DNA of 64,000 nt. Source: a virus. Each line of letters starts with the position of its first letter. The stretch's first letter is position 1. Shown piece after piece: positions 8,567 to 53,530 of the stretch. Under the pieces are notes generated by a model. It was given only the letters and a program-made list of their open reading frames with translations. It did no database searches and was not told the origin of the DNA. Made by a program: the position numbers and the translations under genes. The DNA is taken from positions 13,274 through 77,273 of the IMG/VR virus record IMGVR_UViG_3300022871_000011; one strand, given 5' to 3'.

Positions 8567-8715
8567 ACGTTGGTAGCTAATAGGGTTAAGCGCTCGCATT
8601 TCAAGCGAGGTCAGAATAGACCGTACACCTGGTTAGGTTTATTCCCAAAATTAGGAACGGTATGCGCATACCGGTTCTATGGGTGATGGTAGTTCGAATC
8701 TATCCCAACGTGCCA
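8567..8715 (+). tRNA. tRNA-Glu(TTC)-like gene with a 78-nt structured variable region
   Basis: Acceptor ACGTTGG/CCAACGT, G discriminator, CCA; D arm GCT..AGC; anticodon arm CTCGC-ATTTCAA-GCGAG; T arm GGTAG-TTCGAAT-CTATC. Confidence 0.75.
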
Positions 8716-8725
8716 TTTTATTTAA

Positions 8726-8921
8726 GGTCCTGTAGCTGATATTGGGTTAGCGGCTGGGTGTTGCCTTTGTCATAAGGCACCAGTGTCAGATCGGCAAGAA
8801 ACATAGCCAACCGGTTGGTTATACGAAAAGCCTATCGGCCAAAATTTATGCAGGAAGCGCAGGAACAGTGCGGAATGTGTAATGGGCGTATAAGGAGGTT
8901 CGATTCCTTCTGGGATCACCA
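8726..8921 (+). tRNA. atypical 196-nt tRNA-like gene (possibly Asp-derived, GTC in loop) with an extended anticodon arm and ~105-nt variable region
   Basis: GGTCCTG/TGGGATC-A-CCA; D arm GCT..AGC; GCTGG..TGCCTT-TGTCAT-AAGGCA-CCAGT; T arm GGAGG-TTCGATT-CCTTC. Confidence 0.6.
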
Positions 8922-19145: not shown

Positions 19146-20248
19146 GAAATGTGCAACTATACAATGCGTTAGTTCGCGTCTTCAAAGAAGTAAGAATCGC
19201 GAACGAGGACGAAGCAGCAGTGTTCAGAGCCCCGAGGCTTTCAGCAGTGCAGAATCGTTTGAAGAACAAGTATAAGGATCGTAAAGACCTTATGCCTGAA
19301 CGTGTCTTTGGTGGCGAACAATACCAAGTATGCTGCCCTTATTGTGGTGATAACAGGTATAGGCTATATATAAGTCATGCCTGGGATCGTCATATGAAAG
19401 ATGAGGATGGTAAGATGATCTATGCCGGCAAGAGAGCTATGTGTCATAATGAGCAGTGTCTGGATAACTTGGATAACTTCCGTAATTTGGATGCCAAGCT
19501 ACTACAGAACACTAACTCACAAGACTATGTTCCCTTGGCCTGCTCTACTAATGTAGAAGCATTCAGGCATAGAACGGTACAGCTACCACCGGTGACACCT
19601 TTAAATGACCCGAGCGTCCCAGAGGACATTCAGGCATACGTAACAAATAGAGGCTACGACTTAGATGAGTTGACTAATGGATGGGGAGTAGGTGTCGGTG
19701 ACATCTGGTTCTATCCTAAGCCTTCATTAATATTTCCTATTGTACAGAATGGCGTGCGTAAATGTTGGCAGGCTAGGTACACAGGAGAAGACTTTAAAGC
19801 TTTGGGTAAACCAAAGTACTATTGGCCTACAGGCGTCAAGAAGTCCTGGTTACTCTACAACATGGATATGGCTAAGCTGTATCCGGGTGTAGTACTGACC
19901 GAGGGGGTCCTAGACGCGATCAAAATTGGCCCTGTGGGGACGTGCATGTTCGGAAAAATTCCGTCGGCTCACCAAGAGCAGCTATTAGCTACGCACTGGA
20001 AAAACAGTACGTTAGTATGGATTCCGGATGAAGATGATCCGCAAAGTATTAAGACTGCGGAGGAATATACAGAGAAGTGGAACAGAAAAGGACTCTTCAG
20101 GGAAGGTGCACACGTCGTACGTCTTCCTAGCGGAGACCCGGGTGACCACTCTAGGAGGGATTTGTGGAATTTGATTGTGGACAAAGCGCCATCACTGTCC
20201 AGGTTCGCGGACGGACGTACCCAGTCAGAATCTGGAATGGTAGGGTAG
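19142..20248 (+). CDS. DNA primase
   Basis: CPYC..CHN zinc finger; KYY; TEGVLDA TOPRIM motif; DxD. Confidence 0.88.
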   Translation: MRNVQLYNALVRVFKEVRIANEDEAAVFRAPRLSAVQNRLKNKYKDRKDLMPERVFGGEQYQVCCPYCGDNRYRLYISHAWDRHMKDEDGKMIYAGKRAMCHNEQCLDNLDNFRNLDAKLLQNTNSQDYVPLACSTNVEAFRHRTVQLPPVTPLNDPSVPEDIQAYVTNRGYDLDELTNGWGVGVGDIWFYPKPSLIFPIVQNGVRKCWQARYTGEDFKALGKPKYYWPTGVKKSWLLYNMDMAKLYPGVVLTEGVLDAIKIGPVGTCMFGKIPSAHQEQLLATHWKNSTLVWIPDEDDPQSIKTAEEYTEKWNRKGLFREGAHVVRLPSGDPGDHSRRDLWNLIVDKAPSLSRFADGRTQSESGMVG

Positions 20249-23200
20249 ATACCCCGCTTGATGGAACTGAATTTGGAGTTGACACGGAGACGCTCTTAAT
20301 TGAGGGTCCTGTCAAGCTACCGGATATGGTAATCATGCAGGTGTTTAATGGTATATCGGTTGACATTGTAACGTGGGATAAGGTTGATCTTTATCTCAGG
20401 CTACTGGAGAAGCACAACAAGGAGAAGATCCTATTGTACTTCCTTAATGCACCATTTGATATACGTGTGATCAATAGCACGACTCTACACAGAATGTTGG
20501 CTAACGATCAAGTAATAGATGTAGGCTCACGCCATCGTCTTTATAAGTTAGCAACGCAGGGGTACTTCGAAGAACCTGTATCACTGGCTAACCTGTGTCG
20601 TCTGTACTTGCACCAGGAGCTAGATAAGCCTGAGGATATCAGGATGGGCTTCACACGTGATATGGTACTAACAGCAGCGGATGTAAGATATGCAGCATTG
20701 GATGCTGTAGTGACACTGCTGATAGCGAGAGAGATGCCCGAGCAACCAACTGAAGCCTTACAGGCTAAAGCCGACCTTGTACTGGACCTAATAAAAGCAG
20801 CCGGTATTAAGGTAGACAAACCAGCTTGGGATGCTCATAAGCAGAGTATGCAGGACCGTTATGTAGTAGCAGCAGATGTCTTGAGAACCCACGGGTTCGA
20901 ACCAGACTCCAATGCTAATAAGCCTGGTACATTACTAGGTAAGTTCTGTAGTGCCATGGGTATCGATGCCCCACCCAAGGTATGGTCAGTGACTAAGCTC
21001 AAAGGTATACTATATGTAATGTATGCAGAGAGCGGAGGCACATTAGAGCATGCCTGTAGTGAACTGAAGATAGCAATGCCAGCCATTGTGGATAAGAAGT
21101 TCAAGATGACTAAGAAGAACACCCAGGACTTGACTGCTTGTTTAGCCAAGCATGACATGGTGGATCTTATAAGCACACGCAAGAGTAGGCCCTTTACTAA
21201 GGTGCTCCTACTCATGGCGGAGCTCATGAAAGAAGGCAATACCTATAAGGCTGTAATGGCTGAGACAAGTAAGCAGTACAATGCTGCAGGTGGGTGGGAG
21301 GATGACTCCGCTTTTAAAGGCCCCACTGCATTTGTACAAGACCATCTTAAGAAGCTGCAAGCTGTGCATGGTATAACATTCGCAGAGACACCCGGCGGTA
21401 AGATCAAGATGAGCAAGGATGAAGCCTGGCGTCTTGAGTCAAAGGGTATCAAGGACGAGTTCCTAGAAGCCTACATAGACTATAAGCATATCGAGAAGAT
21501 CCTCGGTACATATCTTAATGATGAGTTTATTTATACGGACGGCCGAGTTCATGCCAGATTTAATATCATGGTAAAAACGGGCCGCACGAGTTGTTCAAAA
21601 CCCAATCTTCAAAACCTGCCTAAGGCAGACGGCATCCGGGAACTGTTTACAGTTGAGGATGGTAAAGTCATGGTTAGTATTGATTATAATCAGCTGGAAC
21701 TATGTTCTCTAGCACAACACTGCCATAAGGAGTATGGTGTAAGTCGTATGAGAGAACTAATAAATGCTGAGATTGATTTACATAGTTGGTTCGCGGGGAG
21801 GAAGCTTAGGCATATCACCCCAGAGAATGACTATGATGGAACCGAGGTGTCCAGAGTAGGCCTCCTACCTATCCTTAAGAATATAAAGGATACAGAGGAT
21901 GGAGAACGAAGTAAGGCAAAAGCAGCGAACTTCGGTCAAAACTGCTTGCTTTTGCCTAAGGAACGTAGTATAGTAGCATAAACTATAGGAGTTATGCTAT
22001 GAAGAAATGTTTATTTTGTGGGAAAGGGCCGGTAGCAATAAAATACTGTTCTACGTTATGTAAGAGCAGATACCGGTCGAAACATGTGAGGTATGATAAA
22101 GTGTGTGAGTTTTGTGAAAAAGAGTTTGACACAACAACTAAAGCAACTAGATTCTGTTCCACGAGTTGTGCAGGGAAAGGAACCCCTGTGCCTCTTAAGA
22201 CATTAATCTGTGTTGATTGTGGTGAAGAGTTCGAATTCAAAGGCCGCACTAAAAAGCTACGCTGTGGCACTTGCTGGTCCGCCAAGAGATCAGAGCAATC
22301 CATGACATATAGATGCCAGAAGGACGCCTCCATTAAAAGGGGCGCAGGCAGTGGAGGGGCTCAGTTTGCTGAGGCCAATCACATGTGGAACTCCACAGCT
22401 AAGTATCATAGGCATGATGGCTATCACTACGACTACAGAGCCCGGTGCTTTAAACACTGGATCAAAGCGTGTGTTGTATGTGATAAAGAGGAAGGGCTCA
22501 TAGATGTTCACCATGTAAACGGTGATAGGGAGGATGTCTCTTTTGGGAATCTTGTCCCACTATGCCGCAAGTGCCACTCACAGGTACACAAGATAAATAA
22601 AGAGCTGGGCTACGATAAGTATGAAGAAGCCCTATTTGACCACCTATGGAAGGAAGGCCGAAGTAAAATCGCGGAATTAAGCGGGAACCCTACGTCCGAT
22701 GATAAGGGAATCCGAACCGAAGGCTAAACTAAGTTTAGTCAGGGGCAGAGCATAGAAGATGAAATAATTCTTCCACGAGGCCGCGACACAGTAATGTGAA
22801 AAGATATGCCGAGCTGCGGTGAAAGCCGTAGAAGTAGAGGATAAAAAGCCTTTACGATAACAATTGTTTCCAGGTGGTATGGGCGTAAATAGATTCTTAA
22901 ATGAATCATGGAAGAACGGGATGTATGATATGACATACGAGGAAGCACAGGAGCTACGCTCTGCGTGGTTTGATGCCTTCCCCGAAATGGAATTTCATAT
23001 GAATCCATCGACGTGCTCGGCACCTAATGGAGGGGCTGACACAAACATTTATGTGGGACATTCCTTAGCAGGAACATCACGTAAGTATTGCTCGTATAAT
23101 AGTGCGTGCAATTATCCGTTAAATTGTAGCGGATAAAAAATGAGGTGAATTCATGGGAAGCCAACTTGACAAATTAGCTTGTAACACGTATTGTAGTTAC

Positions 23201-24352
23201 AAGCTGAAGGTGATCATGAGCCAAGCTGCACAGGGATGTGTGGAAGGTGCAACGACTAGTCTGTACAATCTAGACCAGATGATGGGAGACCACGAGCGCC
23301 TCACCCGGGTAAAGTATACCCGGTGATGATATAGTCTGAACTATTACAAATGTCAAGGAGTTAATTAGCATGAAATGTCAGAAAAGGAACGAGAAGTAAG
23401 TCGCGAACGAGGTAGAAAGTATAGAGAAAACATGTCTGAAGAGCAGAGGACACGTAAAAGCGATCGCGACAAACAAAACCGAAGAGCTGCTAAGAAGGAA
23501 AGACTTACACTGAACAAGACTTTGTTTAAGAAGGGTAAGAGAATCTGTAGCAGATGTTATGACAAGAAAGTACTCTCGGCATACTCGACCAAAGGGAACA
23601 GCCCCTCCAATTATAATAAGATATGTGATAGTTGTTTAATAAAGCTCTATCAAACTATCTCTTATTCTCCGGAGGTCTTGACCCCTAAATTCTGGCGTAA
23701 AAAAGCATATAGCTGTAATGGAGGGTTTATATCCCGTCAAAAGCGACGGGGAATCGACACAGCTATACAGACATTAGGCACCCAAAAGATAACAGGAGAA
23801 GAACTCCTAAAATTATTTGAGTGCCAGAATAGGCTTTGCTTATACTGCCATACAGATTTATCTGACGGGCAGTTTCAACTAGACCATAGAACTCCGATTA
23901 ACGGAGGAGGAAAACATGGTATAGAAAATATAGACATAGTTTGTGCTGACTGTAATATGCTTAAATTTGATAAAGACCCTGAGTATTTCAAGGGCTTCAT
24001 CGGATCATATGCTAAACGTATACTCCAAGTAATAGAATTACAGGATAAAGAGCCTGTAAGATAACACAATGTTCAATCACTCGCCGCCACAGGAGCAAAG
24101 GTTGCACTTTGGGATCTGATGCGGAACGGGTACAAAATCGTTAACTTTATTCATGATGAAGTATTGCTTGAAGTAGATCGGGAGGGTCTGCACGAGAATG
24201 TTCTACGTGCACAGCAAATCATGGTAGACGCGATGAAGTTCATACTACCGGACGTCCGTATTGGAACGGAAGCGGCAGCTATGACACACTGGTATAAGGG
24301 CGCTAAACCCTTATTCGATGAACACGGCAAACTCACTTTGTGGGTGCCATAA
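20164..24352 (+). CDS. polA: family A DNA polymerase; exons 20164-21936, 22867-23119 and 24072-24352
   Basis: Exonuclease DTET and YAALDA; TGRTS..PNLQN; DYNQLE; motif B KAANFG/FPGG; NYP/FQS; motif C IHDE. Confidence 0.92.
21937..22866 (+). mobile_element. group I intron 1 of polA, with HNH ORF in the P1 loop
   Basis: Exon ACUUCGGU pairs with guide GCCGAAGU at 22657-22664; core downstream with variant P7 (GAGCAUA/UAUGCC); terminal G; in-frame join. Confidence 0.87.
21999..22727 (+). CDS. intron-encoded HNH endonuclease with N-terminal Cys-rich repeats
   Basis: DVHHVNGD...NLVPLCRKCHSQVH; promoter TTGCTT-N17-TATAGT at 21946-21974. Confidence 0.87.
   Translation: MKKCLFCGKGPVAIKYCSTLCKSRYRSKHVRYDKVCEFCEKEFDTTTKATRFCSTSCAGKGTPVPLKTLICVDCGEEFEFKGRTKKLRCGTCWSAKRSEQSMTYRCQKDASIKRGAGSGGAQFAEANHMWNSTAKYHRHDGYHYDYRARCFKHWIKACVVCDKEEGLIDVHHVNGDREDVSFGNLVPLCRKCHSQVHKINKELGYDKYEEALFDHLWKEGRSKIAELSGNPTSDDKGIRTEG
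23120..24071 (+). mobile_element. group I intron 2 of polA
   Basis: P1 UUAUCCGU/GCGGAUAA; CGACTA and GATATAGTC; terminal G; join gives NYPFQSLAA. Confidence 0.88.
23375..24064 (+). CDS. intron-encoded HNH endonuclease
   Basis: CLYC...LDHRTP..GGKH..ENI..VCADCN; promoter TTGACA-N17-TATTGT at 23166-23194. Confidence 0.87.
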   Translation: MSEKEREVSRERGRKYRENMSEEQRTRKSDRDKQNRRAAKKERLTLNKTLFKKGKRICSRCYDKKVLSAYSTKGNSPSNYNKICDSCLIKLYQTISYSPEVLTPKFWRKKAYSCNGGFISRQKRRGIDTAIQTLGTQKITGEELLKLFECQNRLCLYCHTDLSDGQFQLDHRTPINGGGKHGIENIDIVCADCNMLKFDKDPEYFKGFIGSYAKRILQVIELQDKEPVR

Positions 24353-43885: not shown

Positions 43886-43919
43886 ACACCTCCAACCACT
43901 AACTATGAAAGGATATATT

Positions 43920-45284
43920 ATGAACGATCTAGTATTAAAGCTCGTCGAACAAGCCGAGCTCAAACATTGGCAAGTCCTACTCGTAGGAGGCGCCGTAAGG
44001 GATCAGTTCTTTGAAAAAGCTGAAGAAGTAAAGGACTATGATCTAGAATTCTACGGCCCAACAGCTGAAGAGCTAGAAGAGTTCCTAAGTAAAATAGGAA
44101 ACGTCAAAGCAGTTGGCAAAAGCTTTGGTGTTTATAAGTTAACAGTAGATGATATTGATCTTGATGTGTCCTTACCTAGAAGGGAGAACAAAGTAGGTGT
44201 AGGGCACAAGGGTTTTGTAATTGAAGCGGACGGGAGCATGACTCCTGAGGAAGCCGCTACTCGAAGAGACTTCACTATGAATGCCATCGCAATGAACGTG
44301 CGAAGTGGTGAGGTCCTGGATTACTTTAAAGGCTTGAATGACATCAAGGACAGGATACTTAAGCACACATCGGATCGGTTCATTGAGGACCCACTGAGAG
44401 TGCTACGTGGTTTCCAGTTCTGTGGTCGTTTTGGTCTGTCCGCGGATAAGTCAACGTTAGAGCTGTGCGAACAGCTACTCCCACAATACACCGAGCTACC
44501 AAAGGAACGTGTATGGATGGAGTGGGAGAAATGGGCCGATAGATCTACCAAGCCCTCTTTTGGGTTAAAGTTCCTTAAGAAGACAGGTTGGCTAGAGCTC
44601 TACCCTGAGCTATATGACCTGGTAGGACTGGAACAAGACGCGTTGTGGCATCCTGAAGGGGATGTATTTACACATTCGTGTCAATCCTGCGATGCTATGG
44701 TTAAGCTATGTGATGAGGGTGGTAAGAAGGGTAGGGACCGTCAGGTTCTTATGTTTGCCATACTCTGTCATGACTTAGGCAAGGTTGTAACGTCAGAGAT
44801 CAATGATCAAGGCCGTATAATTTCCAGAGGCCACCCTGAAGCGGGTGAGGAGTACACCAGGCTATTTCTTAATAGTATAGGTGCACCCCAGGAAGTTATC
44901 GAGAGGGTTATACCTCTGGTCGTTAATCATATGATGCACTTATCAGAACACTCGACCAAGTCGGTCAGGCGTTTGTCCATTAGATTAGGGAAAGCCAATA
45001 TCGATGAGCTTGCTTATGTGATAACGGCGGACTCACGTGGACGTGGAAGTTTATCAAAGAATGAAGTACCCGGATTAGCTGAACTGATTAGACTGGCCAA
45101 AGAGGTAAAGGTTCAGACCTTTGCCCCTAAGCCTATCTTAAAGGGTAGACACCTTATGGACCTCGGTCAAGCGGCCGGACCTGATATGGGTAAACACCTT
45201 GAGAGAGCCTACCAAGCACAGCTAGATGGATTCTTCTCCACAGAGACCACAGCAATACAGTGGTTTGTGGATCACACAAAATAA
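43920..45284 (+). CDS. cca: CCA-adding tRNA nucleotidyltransferase with HD domain
   Basis: VGGAVRD, DYD, RRDFTMNA, EDPLRVLR, HPEGDV, HDLGK. Confidence 0.93.
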   Translation: MNDLVLKLVEQAELKHWQVLLVGGAVRDQFFEKAEEVKDYDLEFYGPTAEELEEFLSKIGNVKAVGKSFGVYKLTVDDIDLDVSLPRRENKVGVGHKGFVIEADGSMTPEEAATRRDFTMNAIAMNVRSGEVLDYFKGLNDIKDRILKHTSDRFIEDPLRVLRGFQFCGRFGLSADKSTLELCEQLLPQYTELPKERVWMEWEKWADRSTKPSFGLKFLKKTGWLELYPELYDLVGLEQDALWHPEGDVFTHSCQSCDAMVKLCDEGGKKGRDRQVLMFAILCHDLGKVVTSEINDQGRIISRGHPEAGEEYTRLFLNSIGAPQEVIERVIPLVVNHMMHLSEHSTKSVRRLSIRLGKANIDELAYVITADSRGRGSLSKNEVPGLAELIRLAKEVKVQTFAPKPILKGRHLMDLGQAAGPDMGKHLERAYQAQLDGFFSTETTAIQWFVDHTK

Positions 45285-45930: not shown

Positions 45931-46893
45931 ATGAAATGTGCAGATGTAGGTTCGTTGCTAGAGGAAACACCTCAAGCATATTATTGGATGGGTTTTTTGA
46001 TGGCTGATGGTTATTTGTCCGCTAAGCGGGTTACGTTAACACTCGCTCTAGAGGATGAAGAGCATCTACGTAGGTTTGGTAATTTTATCAGGTACTCAGG
46101 CAGGCGTAAAGCGGAGGGTAATAGCCAGAGCATATCTGCTATGGATACGTGTCTAATTCCTAGATTAAAACGTAAGTTTGATCTAGATAAACAGAAAACG
46201 TATAAACCACCTGCTCAACTACCTGATGTGCCGGATGACCTGTTGTTATCCCTTATTATAGGGTTTATTGATGGGGACGGATGCATCAGAGCCCAGACAG
46301 GACGAATAGACCCCGCGTTGACAGTTAAAGTACACGACTCGTGGCTCGATATAATGGAGGATATGAGTTGTTTTTTACACGAGAGAGCCGGATGCTCTAC
46401 GGTACATGCCCGTATAAATAATGCTGGTTATGCGTTTTTTACTGTAACCAACTCTATCGTCTTAAAATATATTAAGAAGGGAGCACTAAGATTACAGCTA
46501 CCGGTTTTGGCCCGTAAATGGGACAAGGTAGACTTGGCTCATGTGAGCAGGGCAGAGTTGGGCCTTACACGAGTGGGGCAGGTAAAAGAGGCCTCTGCTA
46601 GGGGTTTAAGCCTTCAGGAGATGGCTGATACGTTGAATCTTAAGTATAACACAGTCTACATGATTTGTAGACGTAACGCTATCGCTATGAATAAAGATAA
46701 AGAAGTAAGGCAGGTGGAAACACTAGCCCACGAGGGTTTAACCATCAAACAAATCGCCGCGGAATTAAAACTAAACTACAAGGCTGTTTATCTGCGTTGT
46801 AAAAGACATTCAATCGCGGTTACAAGAGAGAGGAGAGATAAAAAAGCTAATGTCAAATCAGTACTGGAGCGCGGATCTTCACATCTCGCATAA
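45931..46893 (+). CDS. free-standing double-motif LAGLIDADG endonuclease with C-terminal HTH repeats
   Basis: YWMGFLMADG and IIGFIDGDG; promoter TTGATA-N17-TATCTT at 45878-45906. Confidence 0.88.
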   Translation: MKCADVGSLLEETPQAYYWMGFLMADGYLSAKRVTLTLALEDEEHLRRFGNFIRYSGRRKAEGNSQSISAMDTCLIPRLKRKFDLDKQKTYKPPAQLPDVPDDLLLSLIIGFIDGDGCIRAQTGRIDPALTVKVHDSWLDIMEDMSCFLHERAGCSTVHARINNAGYAFFTVTNSIVLKYIKKGALRLQLPVLARKWDKVDLAHVSRAELGLTRVGQVKEASARGLSLQEMADTLNLKYNTVYMICRRNAIAMNKDKEVRQVETLAHEGLTIKQIAAELKLNYKAVYLRCKRHSIAVTRERRDKKANVKSVLERGSSHLA

Positions 46894-47455
46894 GAATGTG
46901 ATAGGTCATAACAATCGACCTTTTTCATGCATAGAGGAGCATGATCAGGCTATGATTGATAATATAAATAATACCTGCACACGTAAGGATACCCTTAATA
47001 TTATAGGGGACTTCGCATGGAACGATCACGGTAAATGGCTTGCTGCTATCAAATGTAAGAAGGTTCTCATCAGCGGGAGCCACGACAGGATGGCGCAGAA
47101 GTACCTGGATTGCTTCACTGCAGTGTACGATATGAGAATAATGAAACATCAACATGAAATATTGGTGATGGCTCATTGCCCCTTCCGTACATGGGAACGT
47201 TCCCATTATGGTAGTGTACTCCTACATGGCCACTGCCATGGTAGACTGGAGACCTGGAACCTGTCGTTTGATGTAGGCGTGGACACCCATGACTACAAGC
47301 CGTATGCATGGGATGAGCTCAAGCCTATGATAGACAAACGCAGAGATGAGATGAGAGCAGCAGGTAGAGTCGTGACAGAGGATAGAACAGGTAAAGTCCT
47401 GTGGAGACAAGATGATGTCAGGTTCTGGAAAGATAAGTACGATAAGAAAGAATAG
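46850..47455 (+). CDS. calcineurin-like metallophosphoesterase
   Basis: DLHISH, GDF, GSHD, HCP, HGHCH, DVGVD. Confidence 0.9.
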   Translation: MSNQYWSADLHISHKNVIGHNNRPFSCIEEHDQAMIDNINNTCTRKDTLNIIGDFAWNDHGKWLAAIKCKKVLISGSHDRMAQKYLDCFTAVYDMRIMKHQHEILVMAHCPFRTWERSHYGSVLLHGHCHGRLETWNLSFDVGVDTHDYKPYAWDELKPMIDKRRDEMRAAGRVVTEDRTGKVLWRQDDVRFWKDKYDKKE

Positions 47456-47798: not shown

Positions 47799-48122
47799 AT
47801 GAAACCTCATATAGTAGACTTTCTAAGGAAGACCCTCAACAATGAGGCTGTTCCCGAAGAAGTACATAAAGACATCGTCGACCTCATGCTTGAAGAGCTG
47901 GGGTATGACGGCGTTGCAACAGGTGAACGTTTCAGCTGCGTCCAACTGGTATCCGGAGATTGGATACCTGTTACGGCCTATGCTGAGATTAGCAGTCACA
48001 TACTCGATGATAGTAAAATCGCAGCAATCAAAGCATTGAGGGCCGCAACATCGTGGGGTCTTAAGGACTCTAAGGACTTTATCGAACGTTATTGGAATGA
48101 ATTTAAAAAATCAGGAGATTAA
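47799..48122 (+). CDS. ribosomal protein L7/L12 C-terminal domain-containing protein
   Basis: KIAAIKALRAATSWGLKDSKDFIE matches the bL12 CTD motif KIxVIKxVRxxTGLGLKEAKDLVE. Confidence 0.8.
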   Translation: MKPHIVDFLRKTLNNEAVPEEVHKDIVDLMLEELGYDGVATGERFSCVQLVSGDWIPVTAYAEISSHILDDSKIAAIKALRAATSWGLKDSKDFIERYWNEFKKSGD

Positions 48123-51218: not shown

Positions 51219-51587
51219 ATGAAAACTTCAAACCGAAACCCCATTCCTGAAGGAGTATACAACTACTACATCAAGGAAGATAAAAAGATCATCGGATCAG
51301 TGGCCTTCAAGCCTAACGATGATGGCACTGTGTCTAGAGGCATAGCTGTGACCGGGCTAGGAGAGTCAGGTAGTAAGAAGATTGGAAGAAAGATTGCACT
51401 GGGAAGACTCCAGAGAGCCTTAAAAGATGCAGAATCCTCCAGTCCTATTAACTTTAGACGGGATGCTTGTGCAAGGTTCGCAACATCGTTCGAGGGCATC
51501 AAGGCTGATATGTTTAAGTCAGGCTTTGAGGTTGAACCAACATCCTTCGAAACAAGGATAATTGAAAGTGTCAGTAGTGACTACTAA
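51219..51587 (+). CDS. hypothetical protein (KKIGRKIALGR family)
   Basis: AGGAG RBS. Confidence 0.7.
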   Translation: MKTSNRNPIPEGVYNYYIKEDKKIIGSVAFKPNDDGTVSRGIAVTGLGESGSKKIGRKIALGRLQRALKDAESSSPINFRRDACARFATSFEGIKADMFKSGFEVEPTSFETRIIESVSSDY

Positions 51588-51612
51588 GTTGACAAAGAAG
51601 AAGTAAGTTTTT

Positions 51613-51707
51613 GGAAGTGCCATGGTTGCAAGATAGTTGAAATAGAGGCCGTCGTGCGCAAGCATACTATCCACCAGCAGGACCGCGGGTAAATTCTGCC
51701 ACTTCCA
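51613..51707 (+). ncRNA. tRNA-like small RNA (acceptor stem and T-like arm, no D or anticodon arm)
   Basis: GGAAGTG/CACTTCC-A; GCGGG-TAAAT-TCTGC; GATAGT/ACTATC. Confidence 0.45.
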
Positions 51708-51713
51708 TCCCTT

Positions 51714-51926
51714 TGTAATATAAAAGGTAGGCCCAGAAGCAGCCATCCTCTAAGGAGTGGGACGCACTTGTAGGCATAGAAAGGTTTCTGAGTTTAGCGA
51801 ACTCTAGTCAGGGACCTACAATGTAGCACAGGCAGGTTAGCGACCTGTTAACCGTCGTCTTGAATGCTACGGCTAGTAAAGATGAACAAATGGTTTCCCT
51901 TTAGCGTAACAGCACACTATATTACA
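51714..51926 (+). ncRNA. ncRNA containing a 23S rRNA L11-binding (H43-H44) mimic
   Basis: GGTAGGCCCAGAAGCAGCCATCCTCTAAGGAGT...GCGTAACAGCACAC closed by TGTAATATA/TATATTACA. Confidence 0.8.
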
Positions 51927-52102
51927 TTTAATTTAAACAAAAGGAGATATTATGAGAGAACAAGAATCAGAAGTAAAAGAGAGCATCCGGAATCTGCTAA
52001 AAGACATGTCTGTTGATCAGCTGAGAGCTGAAGCAGTTAAACAGGAAGCTCACCCTAATCGGATTGATCTGATTGAAGCTGAGCTCAAAACAAGAAGGTA
52101 AT

Positions 52103-52402
52103 ATGGAAGGCAAAGTAATAGAAGAGGGTATTAACTCTGATGATGGTCAACTCTATCGCTGCACATGTGGCTCAGAGATACTGGCTATAGAGTTCGAGAC
52201 GGACCCTAAGTGGCAGGAGGACTGCTACTGTGATGTCTCCATATGGAGATGCGGGGATAGGCACATAGGCTGGTTGTATAGGCTTAGAATGATCTGGCGT
52301 ATACTTACCATAGGTCATCCATATACAGATAATGTCTGTATGGACAAGAAACAATTTAAACAGTTTCGGGAGTACATCCTGAAGCATGAAGTAGAAGCTT
52401 AA
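52103..52402 (+). CDS. hypothetical protein
   Basis: ORF with CxC. Confidence 0.6.
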   Translation: MEGKVIEEGINSDDGQLYRCTCGSEILAIEFETDPKWQEDCYCDVSIWRCGDRHIGWLYRLRMIWRILTIGHPYTDNVCMDKKQFKQFREYILKHEVEA

Positions 52403-52403
52403 T

Positions 52404-52491
52404 GCCTGGCCCTGGTGGGAATCTTTCTGCGAAGTTCTAGAACAGTACCAGGAGAGAAGGTTTGGAGGTTCAATCCCTCCCCTAGGCTTCA
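52404..52491 (+). ncRNA. degenerate tRNA-like element
   Basis: GCCTGG/CTAGGC acceptor; T arm GGAGG-TTCAATC-CCTCC; no D arm. Confidence 0.45.
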
Positions 52492-52499
52492 AGTCTTAC

Positions 52500-53530
52500 G
52501 TGCGGCGGCTTGAGTACAGGCCGGGAAAACTCTACGAACCCTCGGGCTATTAGGTCAGGCGAGGTATCCGGATTAGTACCCTGGATGAACGCCTTGGACA
52601 GTAGTATGGGCCCCTCCGGTCCGTGAAAAGCGGTCCTCGCGCACCAGTTTGTGCCAGAATGGGCCTTAACAGGTCTAGATACTCTGTGGAAGTCGATTGT
52701 AGTACCCTGGGCGAGATAACCGGAAGTAACCTGGGCAGGCAGTAGATTAGTAACAGTAGTCACTCGGAGGGTGAATTGACACCCTCGCTGGCTTTTGATT
52801 TTTAAGGATGTGCCACTATTAAGTTTGACTCGAAGGTCGTGGGTTCGAGTCCCACCTCCGCGAAACCGGCAGTGAACGGGCATCGTCGTTGGCGTGTGTC
52901 TACTAGTACCTGTCTTAATTTGGCGGAGTGGAGCAGTTGGAAAAGCTCGTCGGGTCTTTATTATAACGTCGGATGATCCTGGTGTGGTCTGCTAGCTCCT
53001 AAGCGAACACCATAGGGAAGAGTAGTCATACAAGTAAGCTATTATAAGGATAGCCCAACGTATACAATGCCCCTCTAGAATTACGCAGAGAAGACGTTTG
53101 TCGATCGAACTATGAGTACGATGATCTAATGTTTTGTGCCGCCCCGTATACAACTTAGGCGTGACAGGAGGGAAGCTTTGTGACTGTGGATTTTTAAGTG
53201 TTTACACTTAGTTCTCCCAGCGGGCCTCGAAAAACGCGGTGAATACTTATGAGTTCAAGATACTAGGAACTGGATAGTTTAGAGTTTAACGCCGGAGGGC
53301 ACAGATTTAGCCTGGGACTAGGGGGTAAGCCTCTGTTGTATAGACTTCAGTAGGGTCTCCCAAAAAATACGGTGAAGGCAACTAGTATAAGTAGTATCAG
53401 TGTTGGATGATCTAACGTTTTGTACCGTCTCACGGCCTAAAGGCCGGATTGTCCGAGAGGGGGAATAAGGCCCGACGAGATAACGCGGTCCCCTGGTCCT
53501 CGAAAAACGCGGCGAAGACACTGGTATTAA
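52500..53530 (+). ncRNA. candidate ~1-kb structured RNA (or RNA cluster) with an embedded permuted tRNA
   Basis: No credible ORF; many helices, AGUA/GAA motifs, repeated GAUGA..GAA modules. Confidence 0.6.
52827..52956 (+). tRNA. circularly permuted initiator-tRNA-like fold (3' half 52827-52863, 5' half 52922-52956), no anticodon loop
   Basis: Halves closely resemble tRNA-fMet and pair with each other in the acceptor and anticodon stems. Confidence 0.75.

Follow-up and report, generated by a model that had tools for sequence, protein, structure and literature searches.

What a piece of the ribosome might be doing in a bacteriophage genome is the question raised by a 365-nt gap between two open reading frames (51219-51587 and 51952-52101, both on the plus strand) in the 64,000-nt stretch of DNA analysed here (the window). 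The window is part of an IMG/VR viral contig that is linear, 77 kb long and ~41% complete as estimated by CheckV. The gap holds a phage-encoded non-coding RNA of 213 nt (51714-51926, plus strand), both ends of which fold jointly into a self-closed copy of the uL11-binding site of 23S rRNA. An initial annotation had described the locus as a stand-alone copy of the 23S GTPase-associated centre (GAC) carrying an insert, and all the sequence strings that it quoted are present at the positions given for them. Few functional sites of the ribosome are as highly conserved or as well studied as the GAC. Judged by its sequence and by those of its relatives, the window element is a stand-alone structural copy of this centre, comprising the top of helix 42 (H42) together with H43 and H44.

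The resemblance to rRNA was evaluated with a covariance model (R1) built from the 15 shortest members of the family, with the window copy excluded. R1 scores every member that we collected. Its sole match in the 64-kb window, at 51713-51928, covers the complete model (positions 1-166 of 166) with a score of 83.2 bits and an E-value of 1.4e-24, which excludes a chance resemblance. Applied to the E. coli rrn operon, the same model finds one site, 23S 1045-1115 (47 bits, E = 2.9e-13), in an alignment from which the insert is deleted. The relationship is also detected in the reverse direction, with the Rfam LSU model matching family member L027 at model positions 1083-1154 (E = 1.7e-5). The two halves of the RNA can be traced separately: an nhmmer profile of the family 5' half matches E. 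coli 23S 1055-1088 (E = 1.5e-11), and the best match of the 3'-half profile within the E. coli rrn operon is 23S 1091-1104, adjoining the 5' match. The LSU_rRNA_bacteria model (RF02541) finds nothing at E ≤ 10 over the full 77 kb of the record, the window site itself lying below detection, and the earlier statement that no other rRNA sequence flanks the element is therefore upheld. A blastn search of the element against E. coli genomes likewise gave no match, the similarity being too short for a database of that size.

Mapping onto the E. coli rrlH gene (locus L015; 23S = L015:260-3163) finds H43, H44, the 1067 and 1095 loops, the 1082-1086 triloop and the presumed tertiary-contact bases all present, column by column (Table 1). 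Both apical loops are thus retained, as had been proposed. The window copy departs from E. coli 23S at 1065-1066 (U1065C and U1066C, giving CC for UU, positions at which single C substitutions occur in other members), at G1055, which is replaced by A, and at U1101, also replaced by A. The phage RNA shares the three-helix layout, the two loops and the triloop with the 23S GAC (E. coli 1051-1108, the minimal uL11- and thiostrepton-binding domain). However, whilst the 23S GAC is part of a 2.9-kb rRNA, the phage-encoded RNA is a stand-alone molecule of ~213 nt with an arbitrary closing stem (P1) of its own; it lacks lower H42 with its conserved core, has A for U1101, and carries an insert of 58-306 nt in the 5' strand of H44 at 1090/1091, followed by a UUUR linker. 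The window copy has the traits of the family in this regard, with P1 flanking both halves and an insert helix positioned between 1090 and 1091 and then UUUA.

Table 1. Positions in the window of the RNA, its parts and the neighbouring genes. Numbers such as 1067 refer to E. coli 23S rRNA.
Feature	Position	Strand	Remark
CCA-adding-type nucleotidyltransferase (PolyA_pol head and HD domain)	43905-45284	+	upstream of the RNA
Calcineurin-like metallophosphoesterase	46850-47455	+	recognised via homologues
107-aa protein with partial Ribosomal_L12 CTD match	47799-48122	+	3.6 kb upstream; PF00542, 27.8 bits, residues 70-97
LAGLIDADG endonuclease			upstream of the RNA
P1 5' strand (top-of-H42 equivalent), TGTAATATA	51714-51722	+	9 bp with 51918-51926
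5' half, 23S 1056-1090	51724-51758	+	R1 alignment and family profile match
H43 lower stem	51725-27 / 51747-49	+	pairs 1057-1081 and 1058-1080 covary in the family
H43 upper stem	51730-32 / 51742-44	+	mapping onto E. coli rrlH
A1067 equivalent, 1067 loop	51735	+	mapping onto E. coli rrlH
1082-1086 pair closing UAA triloop	51750-54	+	mapping onto E. coli rrlH
G1087, A1088, G, U	51755-58	+	G1087 = 51755
Insert-carrying helix, GGGA 5' strand	51759-51762	+	pairs with UCCC 51896-99
Lineage-specific insert proper, 133 nt	51763-51895	+	between 23S 1090 and 1091
Candidate helix UUGUAGG/CCUACAA	51768 / 51815	+	encloses the first UAGCG-loop hairpin sequence
UAGCG-loop hairpin 1, GAGTTTAGCGAACTC	51790-51804	+	candidate fold
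Candidate helix GUAGCA/UGCUAC (DNA GTAGCA/TGCTAC)	51823 / 51865	+	encloses the second UAGCG-loop hairpin sequence
UAGCG-loop hairpin 2, CAGGTTAGCGACCTG	51833-51847	+	candidate fold
Junction strand GGCUAGU	51871-77	+	matches family GGAYAGU strand
AA facing UU	51878-79 / 51894-95	+	matches the family's covarying 2-bp extension
Insert-carrying helix, UCCC 3' strand	51896-51899	+	partner of GGGA 51759-62
UUUA linker	51900-03	+	directly 3' of UCCC
3' half, 23S 1091-1104, GCGTAACAGCACAC	51904-51917	+	R1 alignment; best match of 3' profile
H44 hairpin G1091-C1100	51904-13	+	A1095 = 51908; mapping onto E. coli rrlH
A1101, C1102 (pairs with G1087), A1103, C1104	3' of H44 hairpin, up to 51917	+	
P1 3' strand, TATATTACA	51918-51926	+	partner of 51714-51722

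Relatives of the element were collected by pattern scans, which returned 13 loci from IMG/VR, 34 from metagenomes and 2 from MAG or genome contigs. One of the last of these (L051) was rejected as a member on account of lacking the 3' half. After removal of duplicates there are 39 distinct members, the window counted, and both halves and a complementary closing stem are found in all 39; homologues conserving both halves, whose absence would have spoken against the initial annotation, thus exist. The cultured carriers fall among phages of Pseudomonas, Aeromonas, Xanthomonas and the Enterobacterales. Aeromonas phage 4_4572, XacN1, GAP32 and pf16 are matched by R1, and blastn alone adds Milchi, Astolliot, UNO-G1W1, fHe-Yen9-03/04, Serratia BF, the Erwinia pEa_SNUABM phages, CBB, XbC2 and XaC1. 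In Pseudomonas phage pf16 the 5' half, found by blastn, lies between the genes for tRNA-Asn and tRNA-Pro; the 3' half is present and the closing stem is fully compensated. The RNA is annotated in none of the cultured-carrier records. A match in Paenibacillus phage Pd_22F was not accepted as a member, as it is probably genuine 23S, without the insert and with rRNA-type flanks. This segment (L056 1491-1561, record 83.9-84.0 kb) lies towards the end of the record, within 1.7 kb of sequence that carries no annotation, and may be host DNA or an assembly chimera. A further kind of element, 75 nt long, without an insert and more degenerate in its likeness to the GAC, was observed at L027 3491-3565 (+) and L047 6156-6232 (-), where R1 scores it at 32 and 27 bits, respectively; in both loci it shares a tRNA array with a full-length member.

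The covariation expected of a conserved structure is present in the family. When 28 members are aligned (A2), the rRNA-derived structure has 92% of its cells paired and 14 pairs are altered on both sides; the covariation score is 0.477, whereas shuffled columns score 0.12 and slid registers do not exceed 0.14. All 11 P1 pairs and three lower H43 pairs covary in these members, and the 1082-1086 pair is U-A, C-G or A-U. Along with the R1 match, the covariation of P1 bears out the original description of a stand-alone and self-closed GAC copy with an insert. The bases that are invariant include U1060, A1067-A1077, A1088, G1091, C1092, A1098-C1100 and C1102, with A1095 also unvarying, and amongst them are what we take to be the tertiary-contact bases of the L11-RNA crystal structures. 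Position 1061 is variable in the phage family and is free to vary in rRNA as well (PMC6239185). Overall, ~40 core bases are near-invariant across carrier phages with a G+C content of 36-68%. Our comparison of sequences has therefore shown that the covariation pattern and the invariant bases of the phage RNA match those of the rRNA. RNAfold applied to the whole window RNA prefers a non-mimic structure (-61.3 kcal/mol) to the constrained mimic fold (-46.1 kcal/mol), but this non-mimic fold is comparatively unsupported because it relies on bases that vary within the family.

The insert had been put at ~145 nt. This is the length of sequence separating the two halves, of which 133 nt remain as the insert proper once the GGGA/UCCC helix and the UUUA linker are subtracted. 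The two UAGCG-capped hairpins and the GTAGCA/TGCTAC complementarity described there are present as motifs, but the detailed fold proposed for them is unsupported, RNAfold favouring a competing 7-bp hairpin over the second UAGCG-capped one. Outside the parts of the insert that match the family (Table 1) no homologous sequence occurs in the other members, and the fold is a prediction only; the UAGCG hairpins and the GUAGCA/UGCUAC helix are plausible but without comparative support. The UAGCG loop is not a family trait, as the pentamer occurs across inserts at about chance frequency when judged by eye.

Across members the insert ranges from 58 to 306 nt in length and falls into several sub-families. 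Its GGGA/UCCC base is invariant among the pattern-selected members, with other complementary pairs in GAP32 and XacN1, and the UUUR that follows the insert helix is invariant in the family. About half of the members have a conserved module in the 3' part of the insert, consisting of a GGAYAGU strand, two covarying pairs that extend the base helix, and a hairpin, GNC-ACC-CC(6-nt loop)GG-UAAG-GNY, whose internal loops are rich in purines and which has modest covariation support. The window RNA retains the GGCUAGU strand and the AA/UU pairs but has a 14-nt loop instead of the module hairpin. Pairing of the strand just 3' of GGGA with the three bases that precede UCCC does not hold in most members, and covariation favours pairing of that strand with the two bases after GGAYAGU. 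Nor is the module a copy of another part of rRNA such as the sarcin-ricin loop, as it has no similarity to E. coli 16S, 23S or 5S rRNA.

Most members of the family lie within tRNA arrays. At no fewer than 15 loci (for example L002, L022, L035 and L048) the RNA shares its strand with tRNA genes and in many cases directly adjoins one on one side or on both, and this placement implies release of the RNA by tRNA-processing enzymes. At L005 a consensus sigma-70 promoter (TTGACA-17-TATAAT) lies directly upstream of the RNA. The GAP32 and XacN1 copies have no adjacent tRNAs and the window copy is not in an array. The 77-kb record, the window included, contains no canonical tRNA, and neither a promoter nor a terminator was recognised near the window RNA. 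A tRNA-like processing element immediately upstream (51610-51712) was considered and rejected, as the predicted fold of this segment is no better than that of shuffled sequence (z = -0.29) and Rfam detects no tRNA in it. The window copy is therefore an atypical member of its family, being outside a tRNA array, without the module hairpin and with CC at 1065-1066.

Neither database nor literature searches place the RNA in a described group. A scan of the whole window at the Rfam gathering thresholds reports only a group I intron and no family for the mimic RNA, in answer to the possibility, raised at the outset, that it belongs to a known family; an E-value scan of 51550-52000 gives only a noise-level preQ1-II match. 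No relative emerged when the 15 kb surrounding the site were compared with phage genomes by megablast. In Rfam 15 and the literature searched we found no described phage rRNA mimic and no free-standing cellular or viral copy of the GAC, and we rate the phage GAC-mimic RNA as a kind not yet described.

The closest known counterpart is the ribosomal site itself, and other RNAs resemble it in part. The leaders of ribosomal-protein operons (L10_leader RF00557, L1, S15), the nearest functional analogues, mimic the site at which a ribosomal protein binds rRNA so as to bind that protein off the ribosome, the L10 leader imitating the neighbouring H42-H44 region. These leaders are, however, cis-acting, positioned upstream of the gene for the protein concerned and only loosely like rRNA, whereas the phage RNA is free, situated in tRNA arrays, near-identical to rRNA and has no ribosomal-protein gene nearby. 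RF00557 and the other Rfam leader families do not match, and the downstream ORFs have no ribosomal-protein domains. The T4 species 1 and 2 RNAs (rnaC and rnaD) are also small stable RNAs of a phage tRNA cluster that, according to their annotation, are co-processed with tRNAs. They are not relatives of the family, since R1 run with filters off scores at most 7.1 bits over T4 68000-76000. The principle of copying the shape of a cellular ligand is shared by 6S RNA, which mimics open promoter DNA, by the tRNA-like Y RNAs and by tmRNA, but these copy other templates and are cellular rather than phage-specific, and the phage RNA has no Rfam match to them.

The corresponding ~58-nt domain of rRNA folds autonomously and binds L11 and thiostrepton (PMC2719339; PMC6239185). 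The stalk protein uL10 depends almost completely on helix 42, including the conserved core there, and this lower-H42 core is thought to be essential for binding of the L10/L12 stalk complex (PMC1635324). In the phage RNA H42 is replaced by a short, arbitrary, covarying stem, and on these sequence grounds uL10 is less likely as the ligand than uL11 or a reader of the loops. Of the candidates, host uL11 would be the likeliest, because its minimal binding site is complete and the phages examined have no uL11 of their own (PF00298 is found in 0 of 12 carrier records). The near-constancy of the core over a G+C range of 36-68% and many hosts argues for a partner common to all hosts, not for a protein of the phage, and the spread of the RNA over diverse phages fits a host-universal ligand. 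Likewise, the retention of all tertiary- and factor-contact bases from phages of Pseudomonas to those of high-G+C, actinobacteria-like hosts would indicate a strong selected interaction with a universal component of the host.

The reading that we favour, and hold to be about evenly balanced between right and wrong, is that of an off-ribosome mimic that captures host uL11. The RNA would be made as a stable RNA, excised from tRNA precursors in most phages and transcribed from its own promoter in at least one. It would fold like the ribosomal centre and act away from the ribosome by capturing a reader of the GAC site. Capture of free or exchangeable uL11 would lead to uL11-poor ribosomes or to a uL11-RNA particle, and could blunt uL11-dependent events such as RelA activation or produce competition for factors docking on the A1067 and A1095 loops, with the variable insert adding lineage-specific stability or partners. 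Several observations count against a decoy role: the insert enters H44 near bases contacting uL11 and U1060; the A at the position of G1055 gives an A-C mismatch at the top of P1; RNAfold prefers the non-mimic fold; and at the window there is neither a tRNA array nor a recognised promoter. A more general proposition is that large phages of many hosts carry a free copy of the GAC RNA that sequesters whichever of host uL11, a factor or a defence enzyme reads the site, with the result that translation would be reprogrammed, RelA-dependent stringent signalling silenced or the ribosomes protected. We advance this tentatively, as possible but somewhat short of probable. If true, it would represent a new class of phage anti-host RNA that works by rRNA-domain mimicry with lineage-specific add-on domains. 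The identity of the partner would reveal a new viral route to the manipulation of translation or stress signalling, and the RNA would provide a natural portable module, putatively binding uL11 and thiostrepton, that tolerates large insertions. The cultured carriers pf16, GAP32, Aeromonas 4_4572 and XacN1 make the family directly testable.

The same site could be read by other partners. With or without uL11, the mimic might bind EF-G, another translational GTPase or RelA at the A1067 and A1095 loops and so retune host translation or stringent signalling directly, not by way of ribosomes that have lost uL11. In favour of this idea, oligoribonucleotides from the thiostrepton domain reportedly bind EF-G, and both loop tips are invariant across the family. 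It is also favoured by the contacts that A1095 makes with cofactors in the ribosome (PMC6239185) and by the presence in the window and one other carrier of a protein with a bL12-CTD motif, this being the factor-recruiting part of the stalk. That protein is, however, encoded in only 2 of the 12 carrier records (that of the window and, as a weaker match, the one behind L007), and its absence from the other ten indicates that it is not an obligate partner. Moreover, nothing in the RNA corresponds to the sarcin-ricin loop, which makes up the other half of the factor site, and the insert module is unlike E. coli rRNA. We regard direct binding of a factor as unlikely. The RNA might alternatively absorb a defence nuclease, a modifying enzyme or a thiopeptide-like compound that attacks the GAC, thus shielding the ribosomes. 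Phage tRNAs are believed to substitute for, or protect, tRNAs that defence nucleases attack, and the location of the RNA in tRNA arrays, the exact copying of the target bases and the occasional proximity of RNA-repair-type genes (a 2'-5' RNA ligase in XacN1; a calcineurin-like phosphoesterase at five loci including the window) would all suit such a role. Yet we know of no defence system that targets H43/H44, no conserved neighbouring gene ties the RNA to a defence theme, and many of the hosts of the carriers are Gram-negative whereas thiopeptide producers are Gram-positive. We consider shielding of this kind unlikely.

The remaining possibilities divorce the rRNA-like core from its ribosomal ligands. 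The core could be a folding or stability scaffold, or a processing handle, for a variable insert that is the functional part and is unrelated to uL11 or to factors. Inserts of 58-306 nt in sub-families, about half of them with a conserved covarying hairpin module, are what this would predict, but a scaffold would not require ~40 near-invariant core bases across very different hosts with a G+C content of 36-68%. The invariant bases, furthermore, include A1067 and A1095, loop bases without a tertiary contact, and a pure scaffold is in our view very unlikely. A strong Shine-Dalgarno sequence and ATG follow 25 nt after the end of the RNA, which raises the idea that it acts in cis, as a leader through which binding of a ribosomal protein would control the small downstream ORF 51952-52101, in the manner of the ribosomal-protein operon leaders. 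Most members, though, have tRNA genes on both flanks and no ORF, no conserved link to a related downstream ORF has so far been seen, the ORF downstream in the window has no ribosomal-protein similarity, and Rfam leader families do not match, making this reading extremely improbable. A functionless piece of host 23S rDNA, captured or chimeric, is what the Paenibacillus Pd_22F match resembles, that being close to plain 23S. The window copy, by contrast, has its own closing stem, an insert and no flanking rRNA, and the stems covary across 39 homologues; for the window the probability of captured rDNA is negligible and this reading is refuted. We treat these last two readings, the leader acting in cis and the defunct fragment of rRNA, as effectively excluded.

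Returning to the favoured mimic of the uL11 site, the genes around it identify no common protein partner: all-against-all clustering of the ORFs of 40 loci yields no conserved protein in more than five of them. A calcineurin-like phosphoesterase is near the RNA at five family loci (the window, L012, L017, L020 and L044) and may reflect a theme of RNA end-healing or repair. In XacN1, ORF260 (L054 834-1484), annotated as a 2'-5' RNA ligase (LigT-like), ends 13 nt before the RNA copy. Proteins of ~500 aa with DUF2828 and DUF7788/vWA domains are encoded near the RNA at three tRNA-array loci (L032 5841-7376 (-), with homologues at L044 and L048).

In the window record, a CCA-adding enzyme is encoded despite the lack of a canonical tRNA in the 77 kb. 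Downstream of the RNA is a region of ~1 kb (52400-53450, plus strand) with few plus-strand ORFs and with T-arm-like hairpins. These include CGTGGGTTCGAGTCCCAC at 52838-52855, which matches a tmRNA/tRNA T-arm (E = 0.0014), and GGAGGTTCAATCCCTCC near 52466, and the region may contain unconventional tRNA- or tmRNA-like genes missed by ARAGORN. Only when long introns are allowed does that program report odd tRNAs, at 8567-8921 and 52203-52490, with inserts of 57-203 nt. The record also carries a replication module comprising an SbcCD-like nuclease, helicases, a family-A DNA polymerase and a ligase. The group I intron (RF00028) at window 23086-23358 (+; 63.6 bits, E = 9e-14) lies amid these replication genes, downstream of the ORF for the family-A DNA polymerase (20164-21981).
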